A stretch of DNA of 64,000 nucleotides from the IMG/VR virus record IMGVR_UViG_3300045988_147305. One strand, given 5' to 3'. This DNA comes from a virus (taxonomy: Duplodnaviria; Heunggongvirae; Uroviricota; Caudoviricetes). This document shows, one piece after another, positions 20,132-64,000 of the stretch; within the stretch, counting starts at the first letter, position 1, and every line of letters starts with the position of its first letter. A program made the position numbers and the translations under genes. The notes beneath the pieces are model-generated. The model saw only the letters and a list, made by a program, of their open reading frames with translations, searched no databases and was not told the origin of the DNA.

Positions 20132-20880
20132 GCAAGATTGACTATCAGGCACTGCGTGAGGCGGCAGAGCGTGCAATTCCGGCAATGGAACGCCTGTTAA
20201 TGTTGCCAGTTGATGATGATCTGATAAGTGAACAGGAACTTAAAGATTACGGCGTGGATATTGATGCGCTCAACGCCTTCAAATTTCTGACCGGACCAGA
20301 AACCGTGCTGGCGCTGCTGGATGAACGGGAAAGAAACCAGCAATACATAAAACGCCGCGATCAGGAGAACGAGGATATTGCGCTAACGGTAGGGAAGCTG
20401 AGAGTTGAGCTTGAGGAAGTAAAACAACACGCTGAAGAATTATCCGAAACCAAGGCTGTTCGTAACCAATGGCGGCCAGATATTTGCCCAATAACCGGAC
20501 GTGCATTTTTCATGTGGATTGAGCATCCAACATTGGGAAATGTGCCGACATATGGTGGCCCATTAGATAGTTACACCATTCCAACAAAGGACGGTGACGG
20601 TGAGTTTTCATGTGAGCGTTACGATCATGATTTTGGCGGTTGGGTAGAAAGCGAATGTCTTGGGGTATATCTGATTGATGATAGAGAACAATGCAGGGTC
20701 TACGAACTGGAGGAACGCGTTAAGGAACTGGATGCTCGGGAAATATCGCTCCCGGAACGTAGCAGCATGCTTCATCGAACAGATTTTCACGATGATTACC
20801 AAACGGTAATGGCATACAAAGTTTCTGAAGTCATCGCTGCAATCCGCGCCGCAGGCATTCGCATCAAAGGAGGTGAGTAA
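20128..20880 (+). CDS. Ead/Ea22-like family protein, paralog B
   Basis: N-terminal IDYQALREAAERA...; GTG start in repeated junction AAGGAGGCAACCAGTGAG. Confidence 0.45.
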   Translation: MSKIDYQALREAAERAIPAMERLLMLPVDDDLISEQELKDYGVDIDALNAFKFLTGPETVLALLDERERNQQYIKRRDQENEDIALTVGKLRVELEEVKQHAEELSETKAVRNQWRPDICPITGRAFFMWIEHPTLGNVPTYGGPLDSYTIPTKDGDGEFSCERYDHDFGGWVESECLGVYLIDDREQCRVYELEERVKELDAREISLPERSSMLHRTDFHDDYQTVMAYKVSEVIAAIRAAGIRIKGGE

Positions 20881-54257: not shown

Positions 54258-56173
54258 GCCGCTACCCCCGCTTTCTGGATTGCTACCAACAGATCAGCCA
54301 GGTGGCGAGCTGCGCCGTTAACCAGCTCTTCGTTTTCCTCAAAACGTCCGGCAGCCTGAAGGGCTGCAATCGCTTCCCGGACATTGCCCCGAGCGTTACG
54401 GATCTCCGCCATGTCAGTGCTTTGCATATCCATCACGTTATTGAGATATTCAATGGCTTTATTAGCCTCTGCATCTGCTTCGCTAACCGTTTCATCAGGC
54501 TGTGCCGGGGCCGGTTCTGGCTGAGTAATCTCACCGACTTCGGCCTGCAATGCATTGATCATGCTCTGCACCATTTTCTCGGTGCCAGCGCCCCCAGGAA
54601 ACGCAATATTGGGGAAAGTTTTTTGAAACTGAGTTTTCAGCATTACGCGGAACTCGTCTGGTGAGCTGGTGGCCAGCTCCAGAGCTTTTTGTGCATATTT
54701 GCCAAACGGACCATTAGTAAGTGTCTTCGCCAGGAAGTCGAAAGAATCCTCGCGAGGCAATAACTTCAGGTCGTACTCACTCATTTGCTGATCAGAAATC
54801 GGGGTATCGTAAGTAGCAATGCCGTAGCGTGCATATTCATAATACGGGTCACCTTCATCAGGGCGCGGCAGAATTGCTTTATTACCTTCAGGTATTGCGC
54901 CAGGGGCCGCCGGACGCATTTGCAGGGCATATCGATATGCACCTACAGAGACTTCTGGTTCAGGCGAAGAGCTACCGGTATCCTCCGCTGGTTCAGGTTC
55001 GACCTTTTCCGGTTTATGTTCTTCTGTTTGGACCAGGTATTCCGATACATTACCCGCTTTATAGGCTTTAAACAGCTTGCCGATCGCATCTGCCATGTCC
55101 ACGCCCTGTATGGATTTAGCCTTGATCATGTACACGCTGCCATCCGAATCGGTTAACTGGATATACCCTTCACCGTCCTCAATGAATTGCTTCATTGATG
55201 CACCATTACTGAGCGTCACTTCCCCGTTCATATGCATACGATTTTTGATACTTGCAAGGCGATCCGTCATCGCGCGAGAGTGTCCACCAGTCATCCCCGC
55301 AGGAGCAATGGTTTCGCGCCCACCAGTGCGATTGAGCTGATCAATCTCCGTCTGCAAACGCTCATTCTCTTCATAAAGAGAATCCGCTTCCGATGCAACA
55401 GCGTTAATTTTCTGCTCCAAATCTACCTTCTGCCCTTCTACCGCTGCCACCTGATCCGCGAGGTCGCTCATGGCATCCTCTTTCTGGTCACTGTCAGCCT
55501 GTAGTTGGGTTATTTCATCAACCAGGGCTTTTTTCTTCTTCTGCGCACGCTGGAATTTTGCCGAGTTTTTCTCTGCAAGGTTGGCAAGTTTCATGGTGAC
55601 CTGCGCCAGCGTCATATCACGTCCACTCATCGGAGCAACGGTATGAGTAACGTCTTTTTTATTCAGTAAGAACTGGAAAGCAATCAGCGTATCGCTATTG
55701 GTGATCCGGTTTTCCGCTGTCGGGCTATGAAACAGAATGCTGATAGTCTGACCATCACTGAGCGGAATAATGGCTGGCAGAACCGGCAGCCCGTTAACGT
55801 TACGTGCCCGGCCAATTTCAGCCCCGCCGATCGCGCGTGCACCGTTCTGGGCCACATCCCCCGTTTTATCACTCCCCGCAGAGATTCCGGTACCATTCAG
55901 CTTCTGGTTCAATGCCCGGACAAATGCCTGCATGGTCCGGTGTAGCTGCAAACGAGTAGAACTAATCGCCTCCAGTAAATCCGTAGCACACCAGTGGATC
56001 GGCGTGTCATAGAAGAACGTAGCCTCGATTTCTTCCAGGGTGTTGGATTCCGTCATCAGATAGCGGTCCTCACCGGCCATTAATGCGCGATATTCATCAT
56101 CAGTCACTGGCGGGGGAAGCACGTCAAGCCCAGGCTTGATCGTCACCCCTTTATTGATATTGAACTGTTCCAT
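54254..56173 (-). CDS. darA: DarA antirestriction/head protein, 639 aa
   Basis: Length and operon position as recalled for P1 DarA. Confidence 0.65.
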   Translation of the reverse strand: MEQFNINKGVTIKPGLDVLPPPVTDDEYRALMAGEDRYLMTESNTLEEIEATFFYDTPIHWCATDLLEAISSTRLQLHRTMQAFVRALNQKLNGTGISAGSDKTGDVAQNGARAIGGAEIGRARNVNGLPVLPAIIPLSDGQTISILFHSPTAENRITNSDTLIAFQFLLNKKDVTHTVAPMSGRDMTLAQVTMKLANLAEKNSAKFQRAQKKKKALVDEITQLQADSDQKEDAMSDLADQVAAVEGQKVDLEQKINAVASEADSLYEENERLQTEIDQLNRTGGRETIAPAGMTGGHSRAMTDRLASIKNRMHMNGEVTLSNGASMKQFIEDGEGYIQLTDSDGSVYMIKAKSIQGVDMADAIGKLFKAYKAGNVSEYLVQTEEHKPEKVEPEPAEDTGSSSPEPEVSVGAYRYALQMRPAAPGAIPEGNKAILPRPDEGDPYYEYARYGIATYDTPISDQQMSEYDLKLLPREDSFDFLAKTLTNGPFGKYAQKALELATSSPDEFRVMLKTQFQKTFPNIAFPGGAGTEKMVQSMINALQAEVGEITQPEPAPAQPDETVSEADAEANKAIEYLNNVMDMQSTDMAEIRNARGNVREAIAALQAAGRFEENEELVNGAARHLADLLVAIQKAGVAA

Positions 56174-56174
56174 G

Positions 56175-56786
56175 TTAATTTCCTGCTTTCAGTTGCTTAA
56201 GACGGCGTTTGAGTTCGCCATTTCGGGCCTTTTCGTTATTGAGTCGGCCTGTCTCCTTATCCAGCTTCGCCCGCAAATCAGTGATCTGCTGTTGATTGAA
56301 AGACACCGAGTTCTGCGCTGATTTATAAGCGGCAACCACCTGAGCATTCCGCTGTTTTGCCTCTTGCAGGCGCTGAAAGTTGGATTTTACTGCCGGTTTC
56401 TTGTCTACCGGATTGGCAACACGTTTCGCTTTGGCGATCAGTGATTTCTGGAATTTTGCGGAGTTTTTGCGGGCCGCTTGCCCCATGACGGTACCAAGCG
56501 TCTTGATATCCGGCGACTGAGCGTTAGGAATAGCTTTTCCATTCAGCCTCACAGACGATATATCGCCAGTATCGTTTACCTGTATGGCAAGAATTTGTCC
56601 GTCGTTAAGAACCAGCTTTGCGGTTTTAACTTTAACGCCATCTTTCGTTGTTGCGCGGTTGCTGGAGTCAACCTCAATTACCGTAACACCGGTTTTATTG
56701 ATCGCCGCGATAAGGGATTTCAGCCCCTTTTCATTAACCTGGTCAAAATCGACCGTTGCATACTTATTTTTCGTCATCTGACACAT
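56175..56786 (-). CDS. hdf: Hdf-like protein, 203 aa
   Basis: Immediately upstream of darA. Confidence 0.55.
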   Translation of the reverse strand: MCQMTKNKYATVDFDQVNEKGLKSLIAAINKTGVTVIEVDSSNRATTKDGVKVKTAKLVLNDGQILAIQVNDTGDISSVRLNGKAIPNAQSPDIKTLGTVMGQAARKNSAKFQKSLIAKAKRVANPVDKKPAVKSNFQRLQEAKQRNAQVVAAYKSAQNSVSFNQQQITDLRAKLDKETGRLNNEKARNGELKRRLKQLKAGN

Positions 56787-57207
56787 CCTGTGCGAGATTT
56801 ATTACGTAACTTCTGCGGATTTGCTGAGTAACAGGGAAAATCCGATACAACGGGTTAATGAACGAGTCGCCATGCGTAACCATGACGTTGAAATGCCACA
56901 GTCGCTCTCCTTTACCCATATATTCAGTGGGTATGTACAACCATTCACTGTTTTCGCCCTGTTCAGCCGACGTCAAACAACGTTGTTCGCCTTCAATCAC
57001 TGTCGTCGGTTTCTGAACATCGCGGATCCAATATCTGACCGTTGCGCCGCGCAAAAACGGGAATTTAGACCGGTATTTGAACGGCACCCGGATGAAACCC
57101 GGTTTAATTTCCACATCACCAAGTTCTAAATGCGTGATGTCCTTGCGTTTTAGCAAATAGCGATCGGCTAAGGCTAACGCAAGAGCGCATACACCCCAGC
57201 CAATCAT
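56764..57207 (-). CDS. lydB: LydB-like antiholin, 147 aa
   Basis: Downstream of and coupled to the holin-like gene. Confidence 0.55.
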   Translation of the reverse strand: MIGWGVCALALALADRYLLKRKDITHLELGDVEIKPGFIRVPFKYRSKFPFLRGATVRYWIRDVQKPTTVIEGEQRCLTSAEQGENSEWLYIPTEYMGKGERLWHFNVMVTHGDSFINPLYRIFPVTQQIRRSYVINLAQDVSDDEK

Positions 57208-57533
57208 TTCCCACCTCCCTTTTTCACCAAACTTGTAAGAACATTCAGAATGCTATCGATATTCACTCGTTTCATCCCTGAAATCACCTCATGACCGTTA
57301 TTGCTGGCTATCGTTACCATTAAGTACGTAATTGATAACTCCCAGCCCTCGTGTTGCCCCAATAGGTACGCCACCGCGCCAGCTGTCACTGCAACAAAGA
57401 TCTCCGTAACCAATCCCAACAAATTGCCAGACTGGCGACCGTCTCGGACATCCATCAGGAACGTGCCTATCCCACCAATTACTGAAAGCAGGAGCGCAAT
57501 AGCAACTGGAGCTAATTCCTGTGTGTCAAGCAC
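57204..57533 (-). CDS. lydA: LydA-like holin, 109 aa
   Basis: Multiple predicted TM helices; charged C-terminus; first gene of the lyd-dar operon. Confidence 0.6.
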   Translation of the reverse strand: MLDTQELAPVAIALLLSVIGGIGTFLMDVRDGRQSGNLLGLVTEIFVAVTAGAVAYLLGQHEGWELSITYLMVTIASNNGHEVISGMKRVNIDSILNVLTSLVKKGGGK

Positions 57534-57607
57534 AAGTTCCCTCCTACGTTGTCAGGAGGTAATGGTATGCAAAGTAACTTCTCAACCGGTTATGTTGCAT
57601 AAGAGAC

Positions 57608-57871
57608 TTACCTATTCAACCGACTTTTGGAACCTTCAATAATAAGCCTGCTATTGGCGCTGAAAATAAGAACCATGCAGCTCTGAAGGCTTTCATTCAT
57701 ATCCTTATATTCCGCGAGATACATGCCAATAAAGCCAGCAAGTACGGCGGAAATACATTCGGCCAGCAATTTCTTGCATGAAGACTCGTAACGGTTTTCA
57801 CATAGCCCACTCAAATACGAATACACCCCACCAAGAAGGGATAACATCACGATATGTACATAAAATGTCAT
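57608..57871 (-). CDS. small holin-like membrane protein, 87 aa
   Basis: Two hydrophobic segments; upstream of lydA. Confidence 0.4.
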   Translation of the reverse strand: MTFYVHIVMLSLLGGVYSYLSGLCENRYESSCKKLLAECISAVLAGFIGMYLAEYKDMNESLQSCMVLIFSANSRLIIEGSKSRLNR

Positions 57872-57998
57872 TTTTTACCTATACAACAGTAAGTTGAACA
57901 ACATCTGAGAACGGTATGCACTTTGTGATTTCCACACACACTGGTTTTGTTAATTAAAACCTGTAGCTTGCAATAAATAACGATAGTGGGCAGAAAAT

Positions 57999-58183
57999 AT
58001 GCTAATAGGCTATGTACGCATATAGACAAATGAACAAAACACAGCTATGCAGTGAAAAGCACTTGAAAGCGCAGGATGTGAGCTAATTTTTGCGAATAAG
58101 GCGAGCAGCAAAAAGGCTGGGCACCCTGGGTTAAAAAAGGTTCTGCGTATGCTTTCCAGAGGTGATACCCTAGTCTCGGGCTA
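57999..58183 (+). pseudogene. remnant of a serine-invertase (Cin/Gin/Hin-like) N-terminus with in-frame stops
   Basis: Reads MLIGYVRI*TNEQNTAMQ*KALESAGCELIFANKASSKKAGHPGLKKVLRMLSRGDTLVSG*, colinear with the first ~60 residues of the cin product on the opposite strand. Confidence 0.6.
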
Positions 58184-58306
58184 GGGACAACATTTCGAGG
58201 ACAGTTTTCATTAGCGGTCAGCAGGCGCTAGATACATCGAATTGATGTGCCGCGCGATAAATGTACCTATTCTATCAAGATAAATTACACCGACGCGGCA
58301 TTAGAA

Positions 58307-58879
58307 TTACAGCTCAGATTGAGTTTGGCGCTTCTCTACAGGATGATAACGATAAATCGTCGATACACCGATATCGTAAATAATTGCCAACTGTTTCCTG
58401 CTGTAGCCATTTTCGATCAACCTCGCTATTTGCTCATGTTGTTCTTTTGTCAACTTCGGGCGACGTCCGCCAATGCGTCCCTGTTCGCGTGCAGCTGCCA
58501 GTCCGGCCAGTGTTCTCTCAACAATTAATTCACGTTCCATTTCTGCTAAAGCCCCCATGACGTGAAAAAAGAAACGCCCCATGGGTGTTGATGTGTCAAT
58601 ACTGTCTGTCAGACTACGGAAATTAACACCTTTTTCCCGCAACTCCTCTATAAGCGTGATAAGGTGTTTCATACTTCTGCCAAGCCTATCCAGCTTCCAG
58701 ACAACCAGCGTATCTCCTTCTGATAACGTTCTGAGCAGCTTTTTCAAGCCTGGTCTGGCTGACTTTGTTCCGCTTATTTTATCTTCAAAAATCAGTTCAC
58801 ATCCTGCGCAGTTCAGTGCATTTCTTTGTAAATCTGTGTTTTGGTCATTTGTTGACACACGAATGTAGCCAATTTGCAT
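58307..58879 (-). CDS. cin: Cin DNA invertase (serine recombinase)
   Basis: MQIGYIRVSTNDQNTDLQRNAL..., catalytic Ser in YIRVST, C-terminal HTH; ATG 58877-58879 preferred over track TTG 58888. Confidence 0.9.
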   Translation of the reverse strand: MQIGYIRVSTNDQNTDLQRNALNCAGCELIFEDKISGTKSARPGLKKLLRTLSEGDTLVVWKLDRLGRSMKHLITLIEELREKGVNFRSLTDSIDTSTPMGRFFFHVMGALAEMERELIVERTLAGLAAAREQGRIGGRRPKLTKEQHEQIARLIENGYSRKQLAIIYDIGVSTIYRYHPVEKRQTQSEL

Positions 58880-58933
58880 GAAAAACAACCTCTTTGTTTA
58901 GTTAAAAATACATCGTTGGTATAGGTAGGGATT

Positions 58934-58959
58934 AAGACTAAAACGTTGGTTTGGGAGAA
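58934..58959. other. cix-like crossover site (left) at the outer edge of a ~240-bp inverted repeat
   Basis: AAGACTAAAACG-TT-GGTTTGGGAGAA; inner half resembles the Gin/Cin half-site GGTTTTGGATAA. Confidence 0.5.
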
Positions 58960-59409
58960 GGCTCGGCGCTGCCCGTTGGTGTACCTGTTCCATGGCCCTC
59001 AGCCACACCTCCAACGGGGTGGCTGAAATGCAATGGTGCAGCATTTTCTTCTGAAAAGTACCCAAATCTGGCAAAGGTTTACCCAACGTTAAAATTACCT
59101 GATTTACGCGGTGAGTTTATCCGTGGTTGGGATGATGGGCGAGGTGTGGATGCGGGAAGGGTCATCTTAAGCATACAGGGGTGGTTAACAGGAAGTCATT
59201 ATCATAATATTCGGTCATGGGACGCGTGGGATAACACGGTATTGGTGCCAAATGACAGAGGGGGGGATAGTCTGTTGTCGACAGATAACGCCGTCCAAGA
59301 AGGAGCGATTAATGGTAAATTTACCAGTCAATACAGAACGGAGTTATCTGGGGGGAATGAAACCCGCCCACGTAACATTGCCTTCAATTATATTGTGAGA
59401 GCAGCATAA
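58951..59409 (+). CDS. alternative tail-fibre C-terminal segment (Sv'), no own start, currently inverted relative to S
   Basis: Begins within the cix repeat (GEGSALPVGVPVPWP...), ends ETRPRNIAFNYIVRAA like the S C-terminus. Confidence 0.7.
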   Translation: MGEGSALPVGVPVPWPSATPPTGWLKCNGAAFSSEKYPNLAKVYPTLKLPDLRGEFIRGWDDGRGVDAGRVILSIQGWLTGSHYHNIRSWDAWDNTVLVPNDRGGDSLLSTDNAVQEGAINGKFTSQYRTELSGGNETRPRNIAFNYIVRAA

Positions 59410-60020
59410 TGGATAATGCGATATTAAATAGCGAACTTATAGCCATACAGGCAGGAAACATTATCGTTTATAACTATGATGGTGGTAATCGGGAATATAT
59501 TTCTGCATCAACTGAATATCTTGCTGTTGGCGTTGGTATTCCGGCACATTCTTGTTTGGATGCTCCAGGCTCACATAAAGCAGGTTATGCGATTCTCCGT
59601 TCAGAGGATTTAAGTTCATGGGAGTATGTGCCAGATCATCGTGGCGAAACTGTCTATAGCATTGACACTGGGAATCCCGAAGAAATCACGGTGTTGGGTG
59701 ACTATCCGGAAAATACAACCACTATCGCCCCGCTAACACCATACGACAAATGGGATGGAGAGAAATGGGTGGTTGATACTGAGGCTCAACATAGTGCAGC
59801 TGTAGAGGCAGCAGAAACAAAACGTCAGTCATTGATTGATACTGCGATGGATTCCATTAGTCTGATTCAGTTGAAATTACGGGCTGGACGGAAGTTGACG
59901 CAGGCAGAAACCACGCAGCTTAACTCCGTGCTAGATTATATAGACGAGCTGAACGCGATGGATTTAACCACGGCACCAGATCTCAACTGGCCTGAAAAAC
60001 AACTTTCTACAGCCAGTTGA
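59409..60020 (+). CDS. tail fibre assembly chaperone (U'/Tfa)
   Basis: Coupled to Sv' (TAATG); conserved Tfa C-terminal region KLRAGRKLTQAETTQLNSVLDYIDELNAMDLT. Confidence 0.7.
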   Translation: MDNAILNSELIAIQAGNIIVYNYDGGNREYISASTEYLAVGVGIPAHSCLDAPGSHKAGYAILRSEDLSSWEYVPDHRGETVYSIDTGNPEEITVLGDYPENTTTIAPLTPYDKWDGEKWVVDTEAQHSAAVEAAETKRQSLIDTAMDSISLIQLKLRAGRKLTQAETTQLNSVLDYIDELNAMDLTTAPDLNWPEKQLSTAS

Positions 60021-60025
60021 TATAA

Positions 60026-61576
60026 TTAATCCGCCCTCACAATATAATTAAATGCAATATTACGAGGGCGGGTTTCTAAGCCAGCAGTACCTAAATTAGC
60101 TACGGACTGTTTATATGTTTTAAAAGTTCCATAATTAGGGGCTGGCAATCCTGCATCGCTTGTGTTCCCCCATCTGATAACTCCCGTATTACCACTAGTA
60201 GCCCATGCCTCGTCAAAGTAGAAATTAATTGAGCTGTCAGTTGCTACGGTTGATTTTGACGGTAATCCGTGAGCATGATCCTCCGTTGCATATCCTTGCT
60301 CGCTTAAAATAGAGCGACCTGGATCAATCCCGCGCCCGTCATCCCAGCCACGAATGAACTCACCACGTAAATCAGGCAATTTATTTGTCGGGTAAGCCTT
60401 TGCCAGTTCCGGGTATTCTTCAGCAGAAAAAGCCGCACCGTTGCATTTCAGCCAGCCAGTAGGCGGTGTGGCTGAAGGCCACGGAACAGGCACACCAACG
60501 GGTAATGCCGAACCTTCTCCCAAACCAAGGTATGCGAGAAGACCAGCAACATCTTTTCCACTCAAATTAGTCAGCGTATTGTCCAGCGGTTGTTTGCCTG
60601 ACAGCGCATTAAGCATTGTTGTGGCAAAGTTCGGATCATTCCCCAGTGCCGCCGCCAGTTCATTCAATGTATCCAGTGCAGCAGGTGCAGAACCCACCAT
60701 TGCTGCAATCGCCGATTTCACAAAAGCCGTAGTGGCAATCTGTGTATTGTTGACCGACTGTGCCGCAGTCGGCGCTGTTGGCGTCCCGGTAAGTGCCGGA
60801 CTTGACAGTGACGCTTTTAGTTCCAGCGCATTGTTAATGGTGGTGCTGAATTTCGGGTCATTGTTTATGGCTGCGGCTATTTCTTTCAGCGTGTCCAGCG
60901 TGGCTGGCGCACCATTAATAAGGGCCTTCAGTGCCGCCTGAACAAACGCGGTGGTCGCAAGTTGCGTGGTATTATTCCCCGCCGCTGGCGTTGGTGCTTT
61001 GGGGGTTCCGGTAAACGTCGGGCTGGCTTTTGGCGCGTACTGTGAATGCGGGTCCAGTGCGGCAAGATGTTTTGCCATCAGATCATCCACGTACACCTTC
61101 AGCTCCAGTGCCTTGTCATCCACATACTTGCGGGTTGCCAGCACAACGGCAGGGTCGATTTTCAGGGTGATATTGTCCGTGCTGCTGGTTATCAGCACCA
61201 TGCGCACGGTCTGGGTGCGCCCGCTGCCTTCAGCCAGTCGCGGTTTATAGCTTTCCGGGCAGTTCCCCACGGCAATCAATGCCCCTGACTCATCAAACAG
61301 GCCCACTTCACGTATCCACCAACCGCCCTCGTTTTCAGGGATCACCTGTTCAGCAATAATCTGGCTGCTGTTCTGCGGGTCGATATAGAGCATATTCAGC
61401 GCAGCCCGGCGTTTCTCATTTACCAGTGCAGTCTGCTTTGCGTCCGGCGTCGGCAATACTCCGCCGCCATCGCCCACCGCCATATGGGTAATTTTTAAAG
61501 GCACACCGAGCGCGGCGGCGCTGGCAAGTTTCGCCGCGCCAATATCCGTCAGCAGGGTATAAAATTTTGTGCTCAT
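60026..61576 (-). CDS. S: tail fibre protein S (516 aa): P2 H/Mu S-like N-terminus plus variable tip
   Basis: N-terminus MSTKFYTLLTDIGAAKLA...MAVGDGGG parallels P2 gpH; C-terminal 166 aa follow the cix repeat and end RNIAFNYIVRAD. Confidence 0.8.
   Translation of the reverse strand: MSTKFYTLLTDIGAAKLASAAALGVPLKITHMAVGDGGGVLPTPDAKQTALVNEKRRAALNMLYIDPQNSSQIIAEQVIPENEGGWWIREVGLFDESGALIAVGNCPESYKPRLAEGSGRTQTVRMVLITSSTDNITLKIDPAVVLATRKYVDDKALELKVYVDDLMAKHLAALDPHSQYAPKASPTFTGTPKAPTPAAGNNTTQLATTAFVQAALKALINGAPATLDTLKEIAAAINNDPKFSTTINNALELKASLSSPALTGTPTAPTAAQSVNNTQIATTAFVKSAIAAMVGSAPAALDTLNELAAALGNDPNFATTMLNALSGKQPLDNTLTNLSGKDVAGLLAYLGLGEGSALPVGVPVPWPSATPPTGWLKCNGAAFSAEEYPELAKAYPTNKLPDLRGEFIRGWDDGRGIDPGRSILSEQGYATEDHAHGLPSKSTVATDSSINFYFDEAWATSGNTGVIRWGNTSDAGLPAPNYGTFKTYKQSVANLGTAGLETRPRNIAFNYIVRAD
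60515..60540. other. cix-like crossover site (right), inside S at the constant/variable junction
   Basis: Inverted copy of the left site (TTCTCCCAAACC-AA-GGTATGCGAGAA). Confidence 0.5.
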
Positions 61577-62178
61577 GGATTCACTCTCATTGTGTCAATA
61601 ACATGGACCGCCCCGCCTTCATGCGCGGTGCCGCCGGAAATAATTGTTTCGTTGATATACGGATAGATCGTGATTTCTTCGCCAAGATAGCTGGCGGCTC
61701 CCACCCAATGCGGGCCGCTGGTCTGCAGGTTGATGGACATGCCGATCATGTGACGGCTACATGGTTTGGCATCGCTTATCAGTCGCTCAAGTTCCAGATA
61801 GGTATCTTCAGTGATGCCCTGGTCCTGCACACCAATGTCCAGGCGAAACGTGCCCGGTGTTTCTCCGGTCTGCCACCACTCAATAATGCGGTTCAGGAAG
61901 CCGAACGGCTCCACCACCCGCCGCACGGCACTGGTGGTTCCTTTATGCTGATGTATATAAAAAGCATCCTTTACCACCTGGCGTTTGACGCTTTCCGTCC
62001 AGCCCTCGTCCCATCGATCCACAGAGAACGCCCAGGCGAGATAAGGCAGGAAACTGACCGGACAGGTTGCCGGATTCCACAAGTCACGAAGCGGCACCTG
62101 CAGATCAGAAATCCCGCTGCAGGTTTGCGCCAGTCGGCGCTCCAGTGGTGTTGAACCCGGTGGCAGCAGACTATTCAT
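61573..62178 (-). CDS. baseplate protein, P2 gpI-like (P1 R position)
   Basis: 201 aa; N-terminus LLPPGSTPLERRLA...YLAWAFSVD resembles P2 gpI. Confidence 0.6.
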   Translation of the reverse strand: MNSLLPPGSTPLERRLAQTCSGISDLQVPLRDLWNPATCPVSFLPYLAWAFSVDRWDEGWTESVKRQVVKDAFYIHQHKGTTSAVRRVVEPFGFLNRIIEWWQTGETPGTFRLDIGVQDQGITEDTYLELERLISDAKPCSRHMIGMSINLQTSGPHWVGAASYLGEEITIYPYINETIISGGTAHEGGAVHVIDTMRVNP

Positions 62179-63079
62179 CCGTTCCTCCGTTGGTTACGCT
62201 CCACTGCGTACATGATGCCGCCTGTGTTTTGTTCAGGACCACATCCGCCAGCGGTGAAGCCAGCTCCACACGCTGCACACCCTCAACATGCAGGGCGGCA
62301 AAGATGGCACTACGGCGAATATCCCGACCAAGCCGCGTCTGACTGGCGATGTACTTCTGCAGGCTGGCTTTTGCCGCTGCCATTACCGGCTCTGCTTCCG
62401 GCCCCGGATAGAGAAAAATGGTAGCTTCCACGCGGTACGGGATGATTTCTGCGCTGCGAACCGTCAGACGGTCAGCCACCGGGCGGACGTTCTCACTGTT
62501 CAGGGCTTTCTCCACCACATCCAGCAGGTCTTTTTCTGCTGTTCCATCGCCTTCGCGGCTAAGGACAGTCAGCACCACCTCTGCAGGTGCCGGACTGGTT
62601 GCACTGGCATCCGCCACCCGACCGTCGGCGCTTCGTGCATGAAATTCATAAGCGGCAGTTGGCCCCGCAACTGAAAGTCCTTCAAAGGCTGCAGGCACAC
62701 GCAGGCGTAACGCTTCATCGCTTTCCATCACAGCCGCAACGGGCGGCACAGCGTCATTATCAGCAGGCGTCACCGTCAGGCGTTTCACGTTGTAGTTGGC
62801 AGCGAGCTGGTCCAGATCGCCGCCCATCGCATAAGCCACCATCACCGCCTGCGCGGCTTCGTTAATACGCTGGCGCAGAAGCAACTCACGATAAGCGTTC
62901 TCCTGCAATAATTTGGTGACGGGTTCAGATTCCAGTTCCAGCGTGCGGATCACTGCTTCCTGCTCATCTTTCGGATGAAGCGCCACAAATTCTGCCTTGC
63001 GTTCGGCAAGCAGCGTCTCAAAGTCCGGCACATCCACAATCTGCGGCGCAGATAACTGCGAAAGGTCAATCACTGCCAT
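62171..63079 (-). CDS. baseplate protein, P2 gpJ-like (P1 gene 16 position)
   Basis: Strong by-eye match to P2 gpJ along the whole length (MAVIDLSQLSAP..., ...GRDIRRSAIFAALHVEGVQRVELASPLADVVLN...); start placed at the internal ATG. Confidence 0.75.
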   Translation of the reverse strand: MAVIDLSQLSAPQIVDVPDFETLLAERKAEFVALHPKDEQEAVIRTLELESEPVTKLLQENAYRELLLRQRINEAAQAVMVAYAMGGDLDQLAANYNVKRLTVTPADNDAVPPVAAVMESDEALRLRVPAAFEGLSVAGPTAAYEFHARSADGRVADASATSPAPAEVVLTVLSREGDGTAEKDLLDVVEKALNSENVRPVADRLTVRSAEIIPYRVEATIFLYPGPEAEPVMAAAKASLQKYIASQTRLGRDIRRSAIFAALHVEGVQRVELASPLADVVLNKTQAASCTQWSVTNGGTDE

Positions 63080-63425
63080 TCTCTGCTCCTGTTGATACGG
63101 AAAGGGACACAGGCACACCGTTATTCCGCCGCCCGGTCAGCTCCACCACCATAGAACCGTCAAAGTTGCTGTTGATGGTGATGGAATCCAGCGTCAGCCG
63201 TGGCTCCCAGCGACTCAGCGCCACATACACTGCCGACATGACCTGCAGGCGTAATGCCGGATTTTGTGGCTGATCTATTAAAACCGACAGGAGGGAACCA
63301 TATTCCCGGCGGGCAATGCGGCTACCCTGCGGTGTCAGCAGAATGTCCCGCACCGACTGGCGCAGATGATCAATATCAGTAATGACTTTGCCGCTGGTAT
63401 TGTTCATCCCGCTATAAAGCGTCAT
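63066..63425 (-). CDS. baseplate wedge protein, P2 gpW/gp25-like
   Basis: 119 aa, size and position between gpV-like and gpJ-like genes. Confidence 0.55.
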   Translation of the reverse strand: MTLYSGMNNTSGKVITDIDHLRQSVRDILLTPQGSRIARREYGSLLSVLIDQPQNPALRLQVMSAVYVALSRWEPRLTLDSITINSNFDGSMVVELTGRRNNGVPVSLSVSTGAENGSD

Positions 63426-64000
63426 ACCGGGCCTCCGGTTGTATCGCCGCCTTTCAGGACGCCAGTATGCTGATGTGCATCAACCACAATCCCGTTAGAA
63501 CTCATCGCTCCGCCGCCCTGGGTAACGCCACCATTGATCACCACTTCGCTGTTAATGCGCGTGCGGTCAGCCTCCAGTACAAACTCACTGGTTTTCATGG
63601 TGATGTTATCAGCGGCCTCAATGACCATTGATTTGATGCCCCTGACATACCAGCGCCCGGTGGCGGGTTCATATTCAAACCAGCCACCGTCAGGATGTTC
63701 TGTCACGCAGGCGTCCGCCGACGTCGACGGTGGTGCGAACTGATTCGAATAGACAGCGGGCAGCGCAAAGGCAGTCTCCAGATTGCCGCCCAGACTCAGC
63801 AGCACCACCTGCTCACCTTCCGATGGTCGCCACCATGTGCGGGCATTCCCGGCACGCAGCGTCAGCCAACTGATCCAGTTAGTTTCAAGGTCGCCCGTTT
63901 TCACCCGGCAAAGCCAGTTCTCCCGGTCCACTTCGGTAACTACACCTGTGCGGATCAGGTTGGTGATAAGGCGCATGATTTCGGTTAATTGTGCGTTCAT
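63422..64000 (-). CDS. baseplate spike protein, P2 gpV-like; start codon is the last 3 nt of the window
   Basis: Matches P2 gpV (LIRTGVVTEVD...RTWWRPSEGEQVVLLSLGG...). Upstream region is outside the window. Confidence 0.7.
   Translation of the reverse strand: MNAQLTEIMRLITNLIRTGVVTEVDRENWLCRVKTGDLETNWISWLTLRAGNARTWWRPSEGEQVVLLSLGGNLETAFALPAVYSNQFAPPSTSADACVTEHPDGGWFEYEPATGRWYVRGIKSMVIEAADNITMKTSEFVLEADRTRINSEVVINGGVTQGGGAMSSNGIVVDAHQHTGVLKGGDTTGGPV

Follow-up and report, generated by a model that had tools for sequence, protein, structure and literature searches.

Two alternative tail-fibre tips and a single assembly-chaperone gene in an invertible segment that is very likely a two-site Min-type shufflon

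The window, which is the whole 64,000-nucleotide stretch of viral DNA that was analyzed, harbors a putative invertible tail-fibre segment. Two inverted-repeat arms, 80% complementary in the repeat search, and two crossover sites at their outer ends enclose, on the plus strand, tip2 (Sv') and one tail-fibre assembly gene, tfa, and, on the minus strand, tip3 (Sv), which is fused to S (Table 1). The assignment of each arm to a tip is also supported by the Collar domain in Pfam and by the tip alignment. Inverted repeats had been reported here in an earlier reading made from the letters alone (the sequence-only reading); the repeats are real, at 230 nt each, but the coordinates given for the right arm were off by ~6-12 bp. 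The same reading described cix-like sites at the repeat ends, and these were found. They form a 26-bp inverted pair, imperfectly palindromic, with identical inner half-sites (TTCTCCCAAACC) and the same central dinucleotide (core AA), and both presumably resemble the hix/cix consensus. A 16-nt site pattern matched only these two sites in the window at zero and one mismatch; one more match, with two mismatches, lies at 20440 and is within chance expectation.

Table 1. Features of the tail-fibre segment and its flanks (window coordinates)
Feature	Position	Strand	Description	Basis
Serine DNA invertase	58307-58888	-	Min/Cin/Pin family	Pfam Resolvase and HTH_7
Left crossover site	58934-58959		cix/mix-like, 26 bp; AAGACTAAAACG TT GGTTTGGGAGAA	Read from sequence; pattern search
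Left inverted-repeat arm	58943-59172		230 nt; codes for the conserved N-terminal 'tail collar' half of tip2	Repeat search
tip2 (Sv')	58951-59409	+	Alternative 3' end for S, silent; head-to-tail with tfa	ORF; Pfam Collar
tfa (U')	59409-60020	+	Tail-fibre assembly chaperone, 203 aa	Pfam Caudo_TAP
S tail-fibre gene	60026-61576	-	516 aa	ORF; Pfam Phage_tail_fib and Collar
tip3 (Sv)	60026-60531	-	3' end with which S is now expressed; tail-to-tail with tfa	ORF
Stem-loop	60028-60074		~15 bp stem, within the last 16 codons of tip3; GUUUCU follows on the tfa-sense strand	
Right inverted-repeat arm	60302-60531		230 nt; collar half of tip3; Min-type/P2-like join falls somewhere within	Repeat search
Right crossover site	60515-60540		26 bp; TTCTCCCAAACC AA GGTATGCGAGAA	Read from sequence; pattern search
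Constant part (shaft, Sc) of S	60541-61576	-	P2 gpH type, not P1 S type	Pfam Phage_tail_fib (PF12571), 2e-64
Baseplate genes I, J, W, V	61573-64000	-	P2-like	Pfam Tail_P2_I for the gene I neighbour; precomputed Pfam for J, W, V

The collar-type tips all share the N-terminal collar half and a C-terminal ETRPRNIAFNYIVRA motif, and differ only in the central 50-80 residues. The stop codon of tip2 overlaps the start codon of tfa (TAATG). The stop codons of tfa (60020) and S (60026) are separated by 5 bp, rather than the 6 bp counted earlier. ORFs, Pfam and tblastn agree on two tips and one tfa beside a Cin-family invertase, as had been proposed. The stem-loop at the 3' end of tip3 folds with -21.9 kcal/mol (z -3.5) on the plus strand and -24.6 kcal/mol (z -2.8) on the minus strand. 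Two diverged loci (L016, L017), with a different tip tail-to-tail with tfa, keep the hairpin in a stronger form (z -4.7). Tips in the head-to-tail position lack the hairpin, indicating that it is specific to the position. It is probably a terminator between the convergent tfa and tip3.

Tfa matches PF02413 (Caudo_TAP) at 3.2e-30 over residues 78-197. Alignment with Tfa proteins of 200 aa and 147 aa revealed that conservation across six sequences is mostly confined to the C-terminal part. In the TFA family, the fibre-binding domain at the N-terminus is variable and the trimerisation domain at the C-terminus is conserved (PMC9608196). With five Tfa proteins as tblastn queries, positions 56000-64000 gave matches only at 59409-60017 on the plus strand, and a second or hidden tfa was not found on either strand. 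A functional tfa on the minus strand, which the sequence-only reading had named as a finding that would overturn it, is therefore absent from this region. A second tfa elsewhere in plasmids of this kind was ruled out for the 40 best-matching PLSDB records listed, all of which contain a single tfa place; in PLSDB as a whole, 82 records have a best tfa match of at least 99% identity.

The invertase has the domains of a small serine recombinase (Resolvase, 2.2e-51; HTH_7, 3.5e-15), and its true start likely yields a protein of 190 aa (58307-58879). As a tblastn query it matched eight P1-like plasmid loci over its full 193 residues at 99.5-100% identity. DNA from 57000 to 59157, which spans the gene, is 98.7% identical to pJIE250-3 (H84), whose invertase is 98.5% identical in amino acids to p15B Min (PMC6906374). 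By this similarity, with pJIE250-3 serving as the intermediate for p15B, the invertase is Min-like and not of the P1 Cin type.

The C segment of P1 with Cin and the G segment of Mu with Gin resemble the window in the adjoining serine invertase, in having 26-bp inverted sites within the tail-fibre gene and in the alternative 3' ends of S, which provide alternative host range. However, both are symmetric (Sv-U, Sv'-U'), with two sites only and a separate tfa for each tip, whereas the window has one tfa-like locus, counting both strands, between two convergent units. As a consequence, one tip is never co-transcribed with tfa. P2-like prophages (Peduoviridae) share with the window the V-W-J-I-H shaft and baseplate genes, 96% identical to phage 500465-1. 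The segments of 500465-1 and H22 are symmetric with two tfa genes, in contrast to the one tfa of the window, and sheath genes follow the invertase where the window has P1-like lysis and dar genes. Pin of e14 belongs to the same invertase family and likewise is associated with tail-fibre tips and tfa genes; we take the e14 layout to be symmetric, stfE-tfaE / tfaP-stfP. Sandmeier et al. in 1992 reportedly found Min and part of its invertible DNA to be homologous to Pin/e14. The sequence-only reading was right in setting the segment apart from the symmetric Sv-U/U'-Sv' arrangement of Mu G and P1 C; symmetric P2-like examples were also seen.

The asymmetry is thus real, but it is not peculiar to this sequence. 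The Min system of p15B and the Min-type P1-like phage-plasmids (pJMK02, pGD27-62, pMTY9975) have in common with the window a Min-like invertase, the crossover sites and collar-type tips of 143-166 aa. The tip2 -> tfa -> <- tip3 core of the Min-type plasmids matches that of the window at 98-100% nucleotide identity, each replicon has a single tfa, and the cin-lydC-lydA-lydB flank is shared. As in Min-type segments generally, the single tfa lies in an indivisible central module, flanked by one tip head-to-tail and one tail-to-tail. The window differs in its shaft, which is P2-type instead of P1-type, and in having two sites and two tips where Min-type relatives typically have more than two sites and several tips (from 4 to at least 16). 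The complete plasmid pGD27-62 is the exception, with two of each. Because multiple sites define the Min family, the two-site state counts against the assignment, as does the chance that the two-tip layout and the S fusion arose by assembly through repeats. Presumably p15B itself also has a single tfa, as its near-identical relatives suggest. Judged from these alignments, the one-chaperone layout is the standard one of the long-known p15B Min type, and dozens of P1-like plasmids carry it almost without a base change.

Comparison with individual relatives supports this assignment. Many complete P1-like plasmids, whose tips number from 2 to at least 16, carry the module (a tip, then tfa and, 5-6 bp further, a convergent tip) at 98-100% identity, and some P2-like prophages have it too. 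Positions 1-50000 of the window are collinear with P1-like plasmids at 99%, and 58201-60531 is 98.5% identical to pJMK02. In six P1-like plasmid loci (L002, L004, L012-L015), the tip that precedes tfa matches the variable part of tip2 at 97-100% identity. The variable part of tip3 is 97.8-100% identical to the tail-to-tail tip of P1-like plasmids, and tip3 is tail-to-tail with tfa in the same six loci and in L020. The complete plasmids pGD27-62 and pATCC10729_02 (Salmonella) are in the state of the window, with shaft::tip3 and a convergent tfa. Plasmid pHNSHP24-3 is in the flipped state, with tip2 fused to the P1 shaft and tfa directly after. In pMTY9975 and a plasmid of strain FDAARGOS_448, tfa is sense-oriented but further downstream of S. 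Near-identical modules therefore occur in both orientations relative to S among complete plasmids. Inversion is thereby seen for the family; for the molecule of the window it is predicted. The P2-like chromosomal loci L016 and L017 contain Min-type arrays of 6-7 tips with one tfa; in lineages of this type the Tfa is only 83% identical to that of the window, and the tail-to-tail spacer of 5-6 bp is kept.

The segment as a whole is very likely a two-site shufflon of the p15B Min type, in which the module flips as a unit and one Tfa is common to the tips. A Min-like serine invertase would recombine the 26-bp sites at the 5' end of each interchangeable tip. Since sites are located only at the 5' ends of tips, the tip2 -> tfa -> <- tip3 module could not be split and would flip whole. 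In the present orientation, S is shaft::tip3, with tfa antisense to the S operon and the probable hairpin terminator in the end of tip3 between them. In the inverted state, S would be shaft::tip2 with tfa directly after. One Tfa would then chaperone every tip of this collar type.

The sequence-only reading offered three explanations for the missing second chaperone gene, and they did not fare equally. The best supported is that U' serves both tips. The Tfa proteins of H22 and 500465-1 are 97% identical to each other, yet their tips have unrelated variable regions. These proteins are ~75% identical to the window Tfa, and Tfa proteins 75-83% identical to it directly follow unrelated tips, including a homologue of tip3. 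The occurrence of the same Tfa family behind unrelated tips is better explained by a shared chaperone than by a recent deletion or by a tip that needs no chaperone, and suggests that Tfa of the window also serves tip3. The second explanation, that Sv folds without a chaperone, is disfavored because a tfa follows Sv homologues in P2-like prophages: the P2-like prophages of strains H22 and NC101 have tips 86-88% identical to tip3 in amino acids, with a tfa behind them in the same direction. Loss of a U gene, the third, is unsupported as a recent event; the 5-6 bp spacer and the embedded hairpin are kept across diverged lineages. If the segment is a Min-type shufflon and not a damaged Cin/C segment, a special deletion story is unneeded.

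The shared-chaperone reading still needs a source of Tfa in the tip3 state, since tfa is not co-transcribable with S in that state, and this counts against it. The sequence-only reading had also suggested that U' is expressed independently. A scan of the plus strand upstream of tfa for a sigma-70 promoter gave nothing convincing: the one sigma-70-like match (59068-59095) scores 9/12, and matches were fewer than in shuffled controls. Read-in from a convergent late operon was considered as another supply and is weakened. The neighbouring genes in the P1-like context all run opposite to tfa in the ORF list, and in L016, where the tail operon points toward the shufflon, a bidirectional terminator with a 12-bp stem is located between gpU and the invertase. 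Flipping of tfa alone between 52-nt inverted repeats (59359-59410 and 60025-60076, the conserved tip C-termini), which would put tfa behind tip3, was rejected. The sequence constructed for this flip was covered to at least 80% in just 1 of 132 PLSDB records (L019), which looks error-rich and has a different tip tail-to-tail with tfa. Two further loci are of note here: L018 has a broken, palindromic tfa, and L020 has the canonical module with another upstream tip. Our preferred guess is that Tfa may be supplied in the tip3 state by low-level, orientation-independent expression.

Alternatively, tip3-state particles may be poorly infective. In the strict form of this alternative, which extends the deletion option of the sequence-only reading to the whole family, the tip3 orientation is dead or weak because shaft::tip3 misfolds, and any Min configuration with an antisense tfa is non-infective or poorly infective. 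P2, Mu and P1 all require their tfa genes. The TAATG overlap would couple translation of tfa to the upstream tip, with a promoter of its own not found in the plus-strand scan. The single tfa per replicon in the best 40 records listed, the failure to see the rescuing tfa-only flip among the 132 plasmid records and the apparent block to read-in from the neighbouring operon in the P2-like L016 also point this way. However, lineages with a Tfa of only 83% identity still have an unbroken tip ORF in the tail-to-tail slot, and the tail-to-tail tips differ between lineages, each with the position-specific embedded hairpin. Intact and diverse tail-to-tail tips with hairpins argue for long-term selection on the tip in this position. 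In addition, all six p15B variants were reportedly taken as host-range alternatives by Sandmeier et al. in 1992. A dead tip3 state is therefore considered unlikely, and a shared Tfa remains the preferred explanation.

The main value of the analysis is the correct classification of the segment as a Min-type tail-fibre shufflon. The classification leaves a family-wide puzzle, touched on by the sequence-only reading, for which an explanation was not found, in that one tip of every Min-type array never shares a transcript with the sole chaperone gene. In multi-tip arrays any tip may land in a configuration with tfa antisense. The infectivity of such configurations bears on the real host-range diversity of shufflons and on the engineering of P1-like vectors with swapped tips.

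The other half of S has a different affiliation. The shaft has a Phage_tail_fib domain and adjoins gene I in a V-W-J-I baseplate operon, as expected of a P2 gpH-type fibre, and shows no similarity to the P1-type shaft of pGD27-62. Positions 60323-64000, which include the shaft, are 96% identical to the Peduoviridae phage 500465-1, whereas similarity to P1-like plasmids stops at the right crossover site. On these alignments, S joins a P2-like shaft to a Min-type segment within the right arm or the cix site. The sequence-only reading did not mention that S combines P2-like and Min-type sequence at what is probably an assembly junction, nor that the two tips may be the remnant of a collapsed four-tip array.

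The window belongs to a low-coverage metagenome contig (NODE_58_length_95259_cov_5.7, ENA assembly ERZ505402) that runs ~300 bp past the window end, ~3.8 kb into the P2-like part. We consider it fairly probable that the assembler passed through the near-identical 230-bp arms, linking the fibre gene of a P2-like prophage with the shufflon that a co-resident P1-like plasmid carried and skipping tips. The 516-aa S and the state with only two tips would then not exist in one molecule. The end of the contig shortly inside the P2-like part and the collinearity of positions 1-50000 with P1-like plasmids fit this explanation, as does the size of the P1-like part, by arithmetic ~91.5 kb, about what a complete plasmid like pGD27-62 (92.4 kb) would measure without its shaft. 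A high-identity record spanning the join was not found in 5,426 E. coli genomes, PLSDB and the phage set. A sister contig (L007) has four sites and four tips, and its excess over the window is exactly 965 bp between two directly repeated sites. Differences between the two contigs are unequal, with 0 in the P2 part and the segment interior, 3 inside the right arm and 11 in 2.7 kb of cin-lyd. PLSDB also contains ~2-kb 'circular plasmids' of tip and tfa alone, indicating that assemblers struggle with the shufflon region. On the other side, the identical join and the 516-aa S are found in two different ENA assemblies (ERZ505402 and ERZ772902), and a P2-type shaft is fused to a tip3-like tip in 35 complete E. 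coli chromosomes. The existence of P2-like prophages with Min-type one-tfa shufflons makes the hybrid architecture biologically plausible. Mapping of the crossover by diagnostic SNPs found arm haplotypes common to several shufflons; the window haplotype also occurs in the natural shufflon L017, so parental haplotypes are unassignable. The one-tfa module is real even if the contig is chimeric, because complete plasmids carry it.

It is possible, though less probable, that homologous or Min-mediated recombination in the shared arm or cix site fused a P1-like plasmid with the fibre gene of a P2-like prophage, giving a cointegrate or a hybrid phage whose P2-type shaft draws on the plasmid tip library. 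The junction occurs in two assemblies that differ in tip number and slightly in their P1-like flanks, and the end of P1-like similarity falls at a crossover site. Exchange would have substrates, given the 89-97% similarity between P1-like and P2-like shufflons in their arms and invertases. However, invertases of the Min/Cin family strongly disfavor intermolecular reactions, the junction was not found in any complete genome searched, and the contigs diverge unequally in their two halves, which fits two separate replicons better than one inherited molecule. The union of P2-like shaft and segment is thus probably an assembly join, with recombination within the shared arm less likely. A bolder proposal takes one of two forms. 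Either the asymmetry is designed, with the tail-to-tail tip functional through orientation-independent chaperone supply or chaperone-free folding and the terminator placed deliberately in its last 16 codons, or the contig is a real fusion of a P1-like phage-plasmid and a P2-like prophage through shared arms; we regard this as rather doubtful. If a real fusion were true, shufflon arms would be portable recombination handles by which unrelated phages share a tip library. With an assembly join, the contig is a warning that metagenome contigs of different phages can be joined at shufflon arms, and the two-tip state of the window may be a four-tip array that was collapsed.

The invertible segment carries two alternative tail-fibre tips and a single tail-fibre assembly gene, tfa. 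The sequence-only reading had claimed this arrangement within inverted repeats, and ORFs, Pfam matches and tblastn bore it out, with slightly offset coordinates. The last ~168 codons of the tail-fibre gene S form tip3 (Sv) and lie inside the segment, and the tfa ATG overlaps the stop codon of tip2 (Sv'). The crossover sites are inverted copies, by sequence and pattern search, that have the inner half-site TTCTCCCAAACC and a central AA in common. With five Tfa proteins as queries, tblastn found one tfa locus, on the plus strand, and neither a second copy nor a tfa ORF on the minus strand. The interest of the segment lies in the unexplained chaperone supply when tip3 is expressed, an embedded putative terminator and a possible P1/P2 join.

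Features of the invertible segment and its surroundings
Feature	Coordinates	Strand	Basis
Serine invertase, 193 aa	58307-58888	-	ORF; Pfam Resolvase+HTH_7
Left crossover site, 26 bp	58934-58959		read from sequence
Arms (inverted repeats), 230 nt, 80% complementary	58943-59172 / 60302-60531		repeat search
tip2 (Sv'), 152 aa	58951-59409	+	ORF; Pfam Collar
tfa, tail-fibre assembly gene, 203 aa	59409-60020	+	ORF; Pfam Caudo_TAP
Spacer between tfa and S, 5 bp	between 60020 and 60026
S tail-fibre gene, 516 aa	60026-61576	-	ORF; Pfam Phage_tail_fib+Collar
Right crossover site	60515-60540		read from sequence

Judged by sequence comparison, the segment is of a known kind, the Min-type shufflon of plasmid p15B, with many near-identical entries in the databases. 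The tail-fibre operon in the p15B Min region reportedly has six 3' ends to choose from (Sandmeier and colleagues, 1991-92, cited in PMC11850598). Positions 58201-60531 are 98.5% identical to P1-like E. coli plasmids. Over 57000-59157, the stretch with the invertase gene, the DNA shares 98.7% identity with pJIE250-3, whose invertase is reported to be 98.5% identical to p15B Min (PMC6906374). All complete replicons inspected have the same central module, a tip followed by tfa and, 5-6 bp further, a convergent tip. In a tblastn map, all the P1-like plasmids examined that were cleanly assembled have tip3 tail-to-tail with tfa. Tfa is at least 99% identical in 82 PLSDB records, and a single tfa place per whole record was found in 40 of the 40 PLSDB records listed. 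P2-like chromosomal prophages of the same design likewise combine several tips, a Min-like invertase and one 203-aa tfa, whose product is 83% identical to the Tfa of the window. Because P1-like plasmids and P2-like prophages carry the same module, the asymmetry is the norm of the family and not a lesion of this element. The earlier interpretation of the segment was right in part.

Since crossover sites occur only at tip 5' ends, tip2, tfa and tip3 are inseparable and flip as a unit. Tfa always comes after tip2, and it is always antisense when tip3 is fused to the shaft. In multi-tip arrays either orientation of the module allows expression of any other tip. This behaviour is a direct consequence of the anatomy and agrees with the configurations found. 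pGD27-62 (two tips, one tfa) is in the state of the window, with S fused to tip3 and tfa convergent, as is Salmonella pATCC10729_02, which has six tips on the other side. pHNSHP24-3 is flipped, its shaft joined to tip2 and followed directly by tfa. In pMTY9975 and the FDAARGOS_448 plasmid, tfa is in sense orientation and lies downstream of S at a distance of several tips. pJMK02, which p10044824_2 resembles, has seven tips and one tfa.

At least 16 tip cassettes, several duplicated, surround a single tfa in the P1-like plasmid pMTY9975_untypable1 (3995-12424); the six sites described for p15B are far fewer. PLSDB also lists "plasmids" of ~2 kb that carry tfa, most with an annotated tip gene beside it (NZ_CP142924.1, 2021 bp; CP088785.1, 2058 bp; NZ_CP148414.1, 2415 bp; NZ_CP148555.1, 1870 bp; NZ_CP148330.1, 1878 bp). 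They represent either excision of circles at sites in direct repeat or shufflon assembly artefacts. pF16EC0211-2, which is devoid of an intact tfa, has a palindrome at 4776-5943 in which tip3 converges on a truncated tfa and a tfa fragment converges on a second tip3, the product of either rearrangement or mis-assembly of mixed orientations.

Deletion of a U gene, one of the explanations offered by the sequence-only reading, was not borne out as a recent event. The tail-to-tail junction and its 5-6 bp spacer are conserved between P1-like plasmids and two diverged P2-like prophage loci with Min-type arrays, L016 and L017. A ~15-bp stem-loop (60028-60074) lies within the final 16 codons of the tip that is tail-to-tail with tfa. 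Its folding energy is -21.9 kcal/mol (z -3.5) on the tfa-sense strand, on which GUUUCU comes next, and -24.6 kcal/mol on the other strand. L016 and L017, whose tip at this position is a different one, have a stronger hairpin (z -4.7). Head-to-tail tips lack it and use other codons for the same amino acids. The hairpin is probably the S-tfa operon terminator, placed inside the convergent tip.

Sequence comparison also favours one chaperone shared by the tips. In an alignment of the seven pJMK02 tips, the two window tips and P2-like prophage tips, the first ~85 residues (the arm-encoded collar half) and the last 16 (ETRPRNIAFNYIVRA) are common to all, and the middle alone differs. Complete E. 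coli chromosomes, 35 in number, contain a P2-type fibre gene that aligns with the window through the junction at 87-89% nucleotide identity. Two of them were inspected, those of strains H22 and NC101; both have a tip 86-88% identical in amino acids to tip3, followed by a co-directional 200-aa tfa, ~75% identical to the window Tfa, which argues against the proposal that tip3 is chaperone-independent. The Tfa of the Peduoviridae phage 500465-1 is 97% identical to that of H22, yet the tip that precedes it has a variable region unrelated to that of the H22 tip; the Min module has a Tfa of this family after tip2. Three unrelated variable regions with one Tfa family in cis favour a shared chaperone, as the earlier suggestion that U' serves both tips had it. 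Tfa proteins are regarded as modular, consistent with one family serving unrelated tips (PMC9608196).

Less readily accommodated in that suggestion is the source of Tfa when tip3 is expressed. A sigma-70 scan for a tfa promoter gave nothing convincing, and a serious rival is that the tip3 orientation is a weak or dead state. The tail-to-tail tips are intact and position-adapted in diverged lineages, which argues that they are used; therefore we lean to a Tfa supply independent of orientation. Two other routes were considered. Flipping of tfa alone between 52-nt C-terminal repeats was rejected, as none of 132 plasmid records showed it. Transcription entering from an adjacent operon is less likely: this path seems to be blocked in L016, and the P1-like context has no operon pointing that way. 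The L016 tail operon FII-E-T-U points at the shufflon, and between it and the invertase gene lies a terminator-like hairpin (3926-3955), bidirectional and with a stem of 12 bp.

Both tips have an HxH motif just past the collar half, HYH in tip2 and HAH in tip3 (59200-59215, 60255-60275), and Pfam weakly matches tip2 to the receptor-binding domain of the T4 short tail fibre gp12. In the gp12 trimer an HxH motif binds a metal ion. A remnant of a second invertase (57996-58172, plus strand; the N-terminal 59 codons, with two stop codons) lies between lydC and the invertase gene in opposite orientation, is 62% identical in amino acids to the intact invertase, and occurs in related plasmids. It may be the scar of a Cin-type system replaced by a Min-type one.

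The window derives from NODE_58 of ENA metagenome assembly ERZ505402 (95,259 bp, coverage 5.7) and ends ~300 bp from the end of NODE_58. Positions 1-50000 are collinear with P1-like plasmids (99%), and P1-type lydC, lydA, lydB, hdf and darA are found left of the invertase. P1-like phage-plasmid sequence reaches as far as the right crossover site, and the rest of the window is P2-like (Peduoviridae; shaft, genes I, J, W and V; 96% identical to 500465-1); similarity to pGD27-62 ends just beyond this site. S thus combines a P2-type shaft with a Min-type tip in one hybrid gene, with the junction zone at 60302-60540. An assembly join through the shared arm is the likelier origin. The P1-like part (~91.5 kb) has about the size of a complete plasmid that lacks only its shaft, NODE_58 stops ~3.8 kb into the P2-like part, and no high-identity record spanning the join was found in three collections (5,426 E. 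coli genomes, PLSDB and a phage set). A real recombinant or cointegrate is ranked lower, though still a fair contender. The exact S protein occurs on two ENA metagenome contigs. The sister contig, from another ENA assembly (L007; 7.3 kb, coverage 2.7), shares the join but has four sites and four tips. Outside the arms, L007 and the window have no differences in the P2 part or segment interior and 11 in 2.7 kb of cin-lyd; the right arm has three differing positions. The crossover is unmappable because arm haplotypes are common to several shufflons. Compared with L007, the window lacks exactly the 965 bp that separate two sites in direct repeat (L007 3654-4632 versus window 58940-59144) and is otherwise its equivalent; the difference could be an invertase deletion, a homologous-recombination deletion or an assembler shortcut. 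Whichever origin the join has, the one-tfa module is genuine, since complete plasmids carry it.
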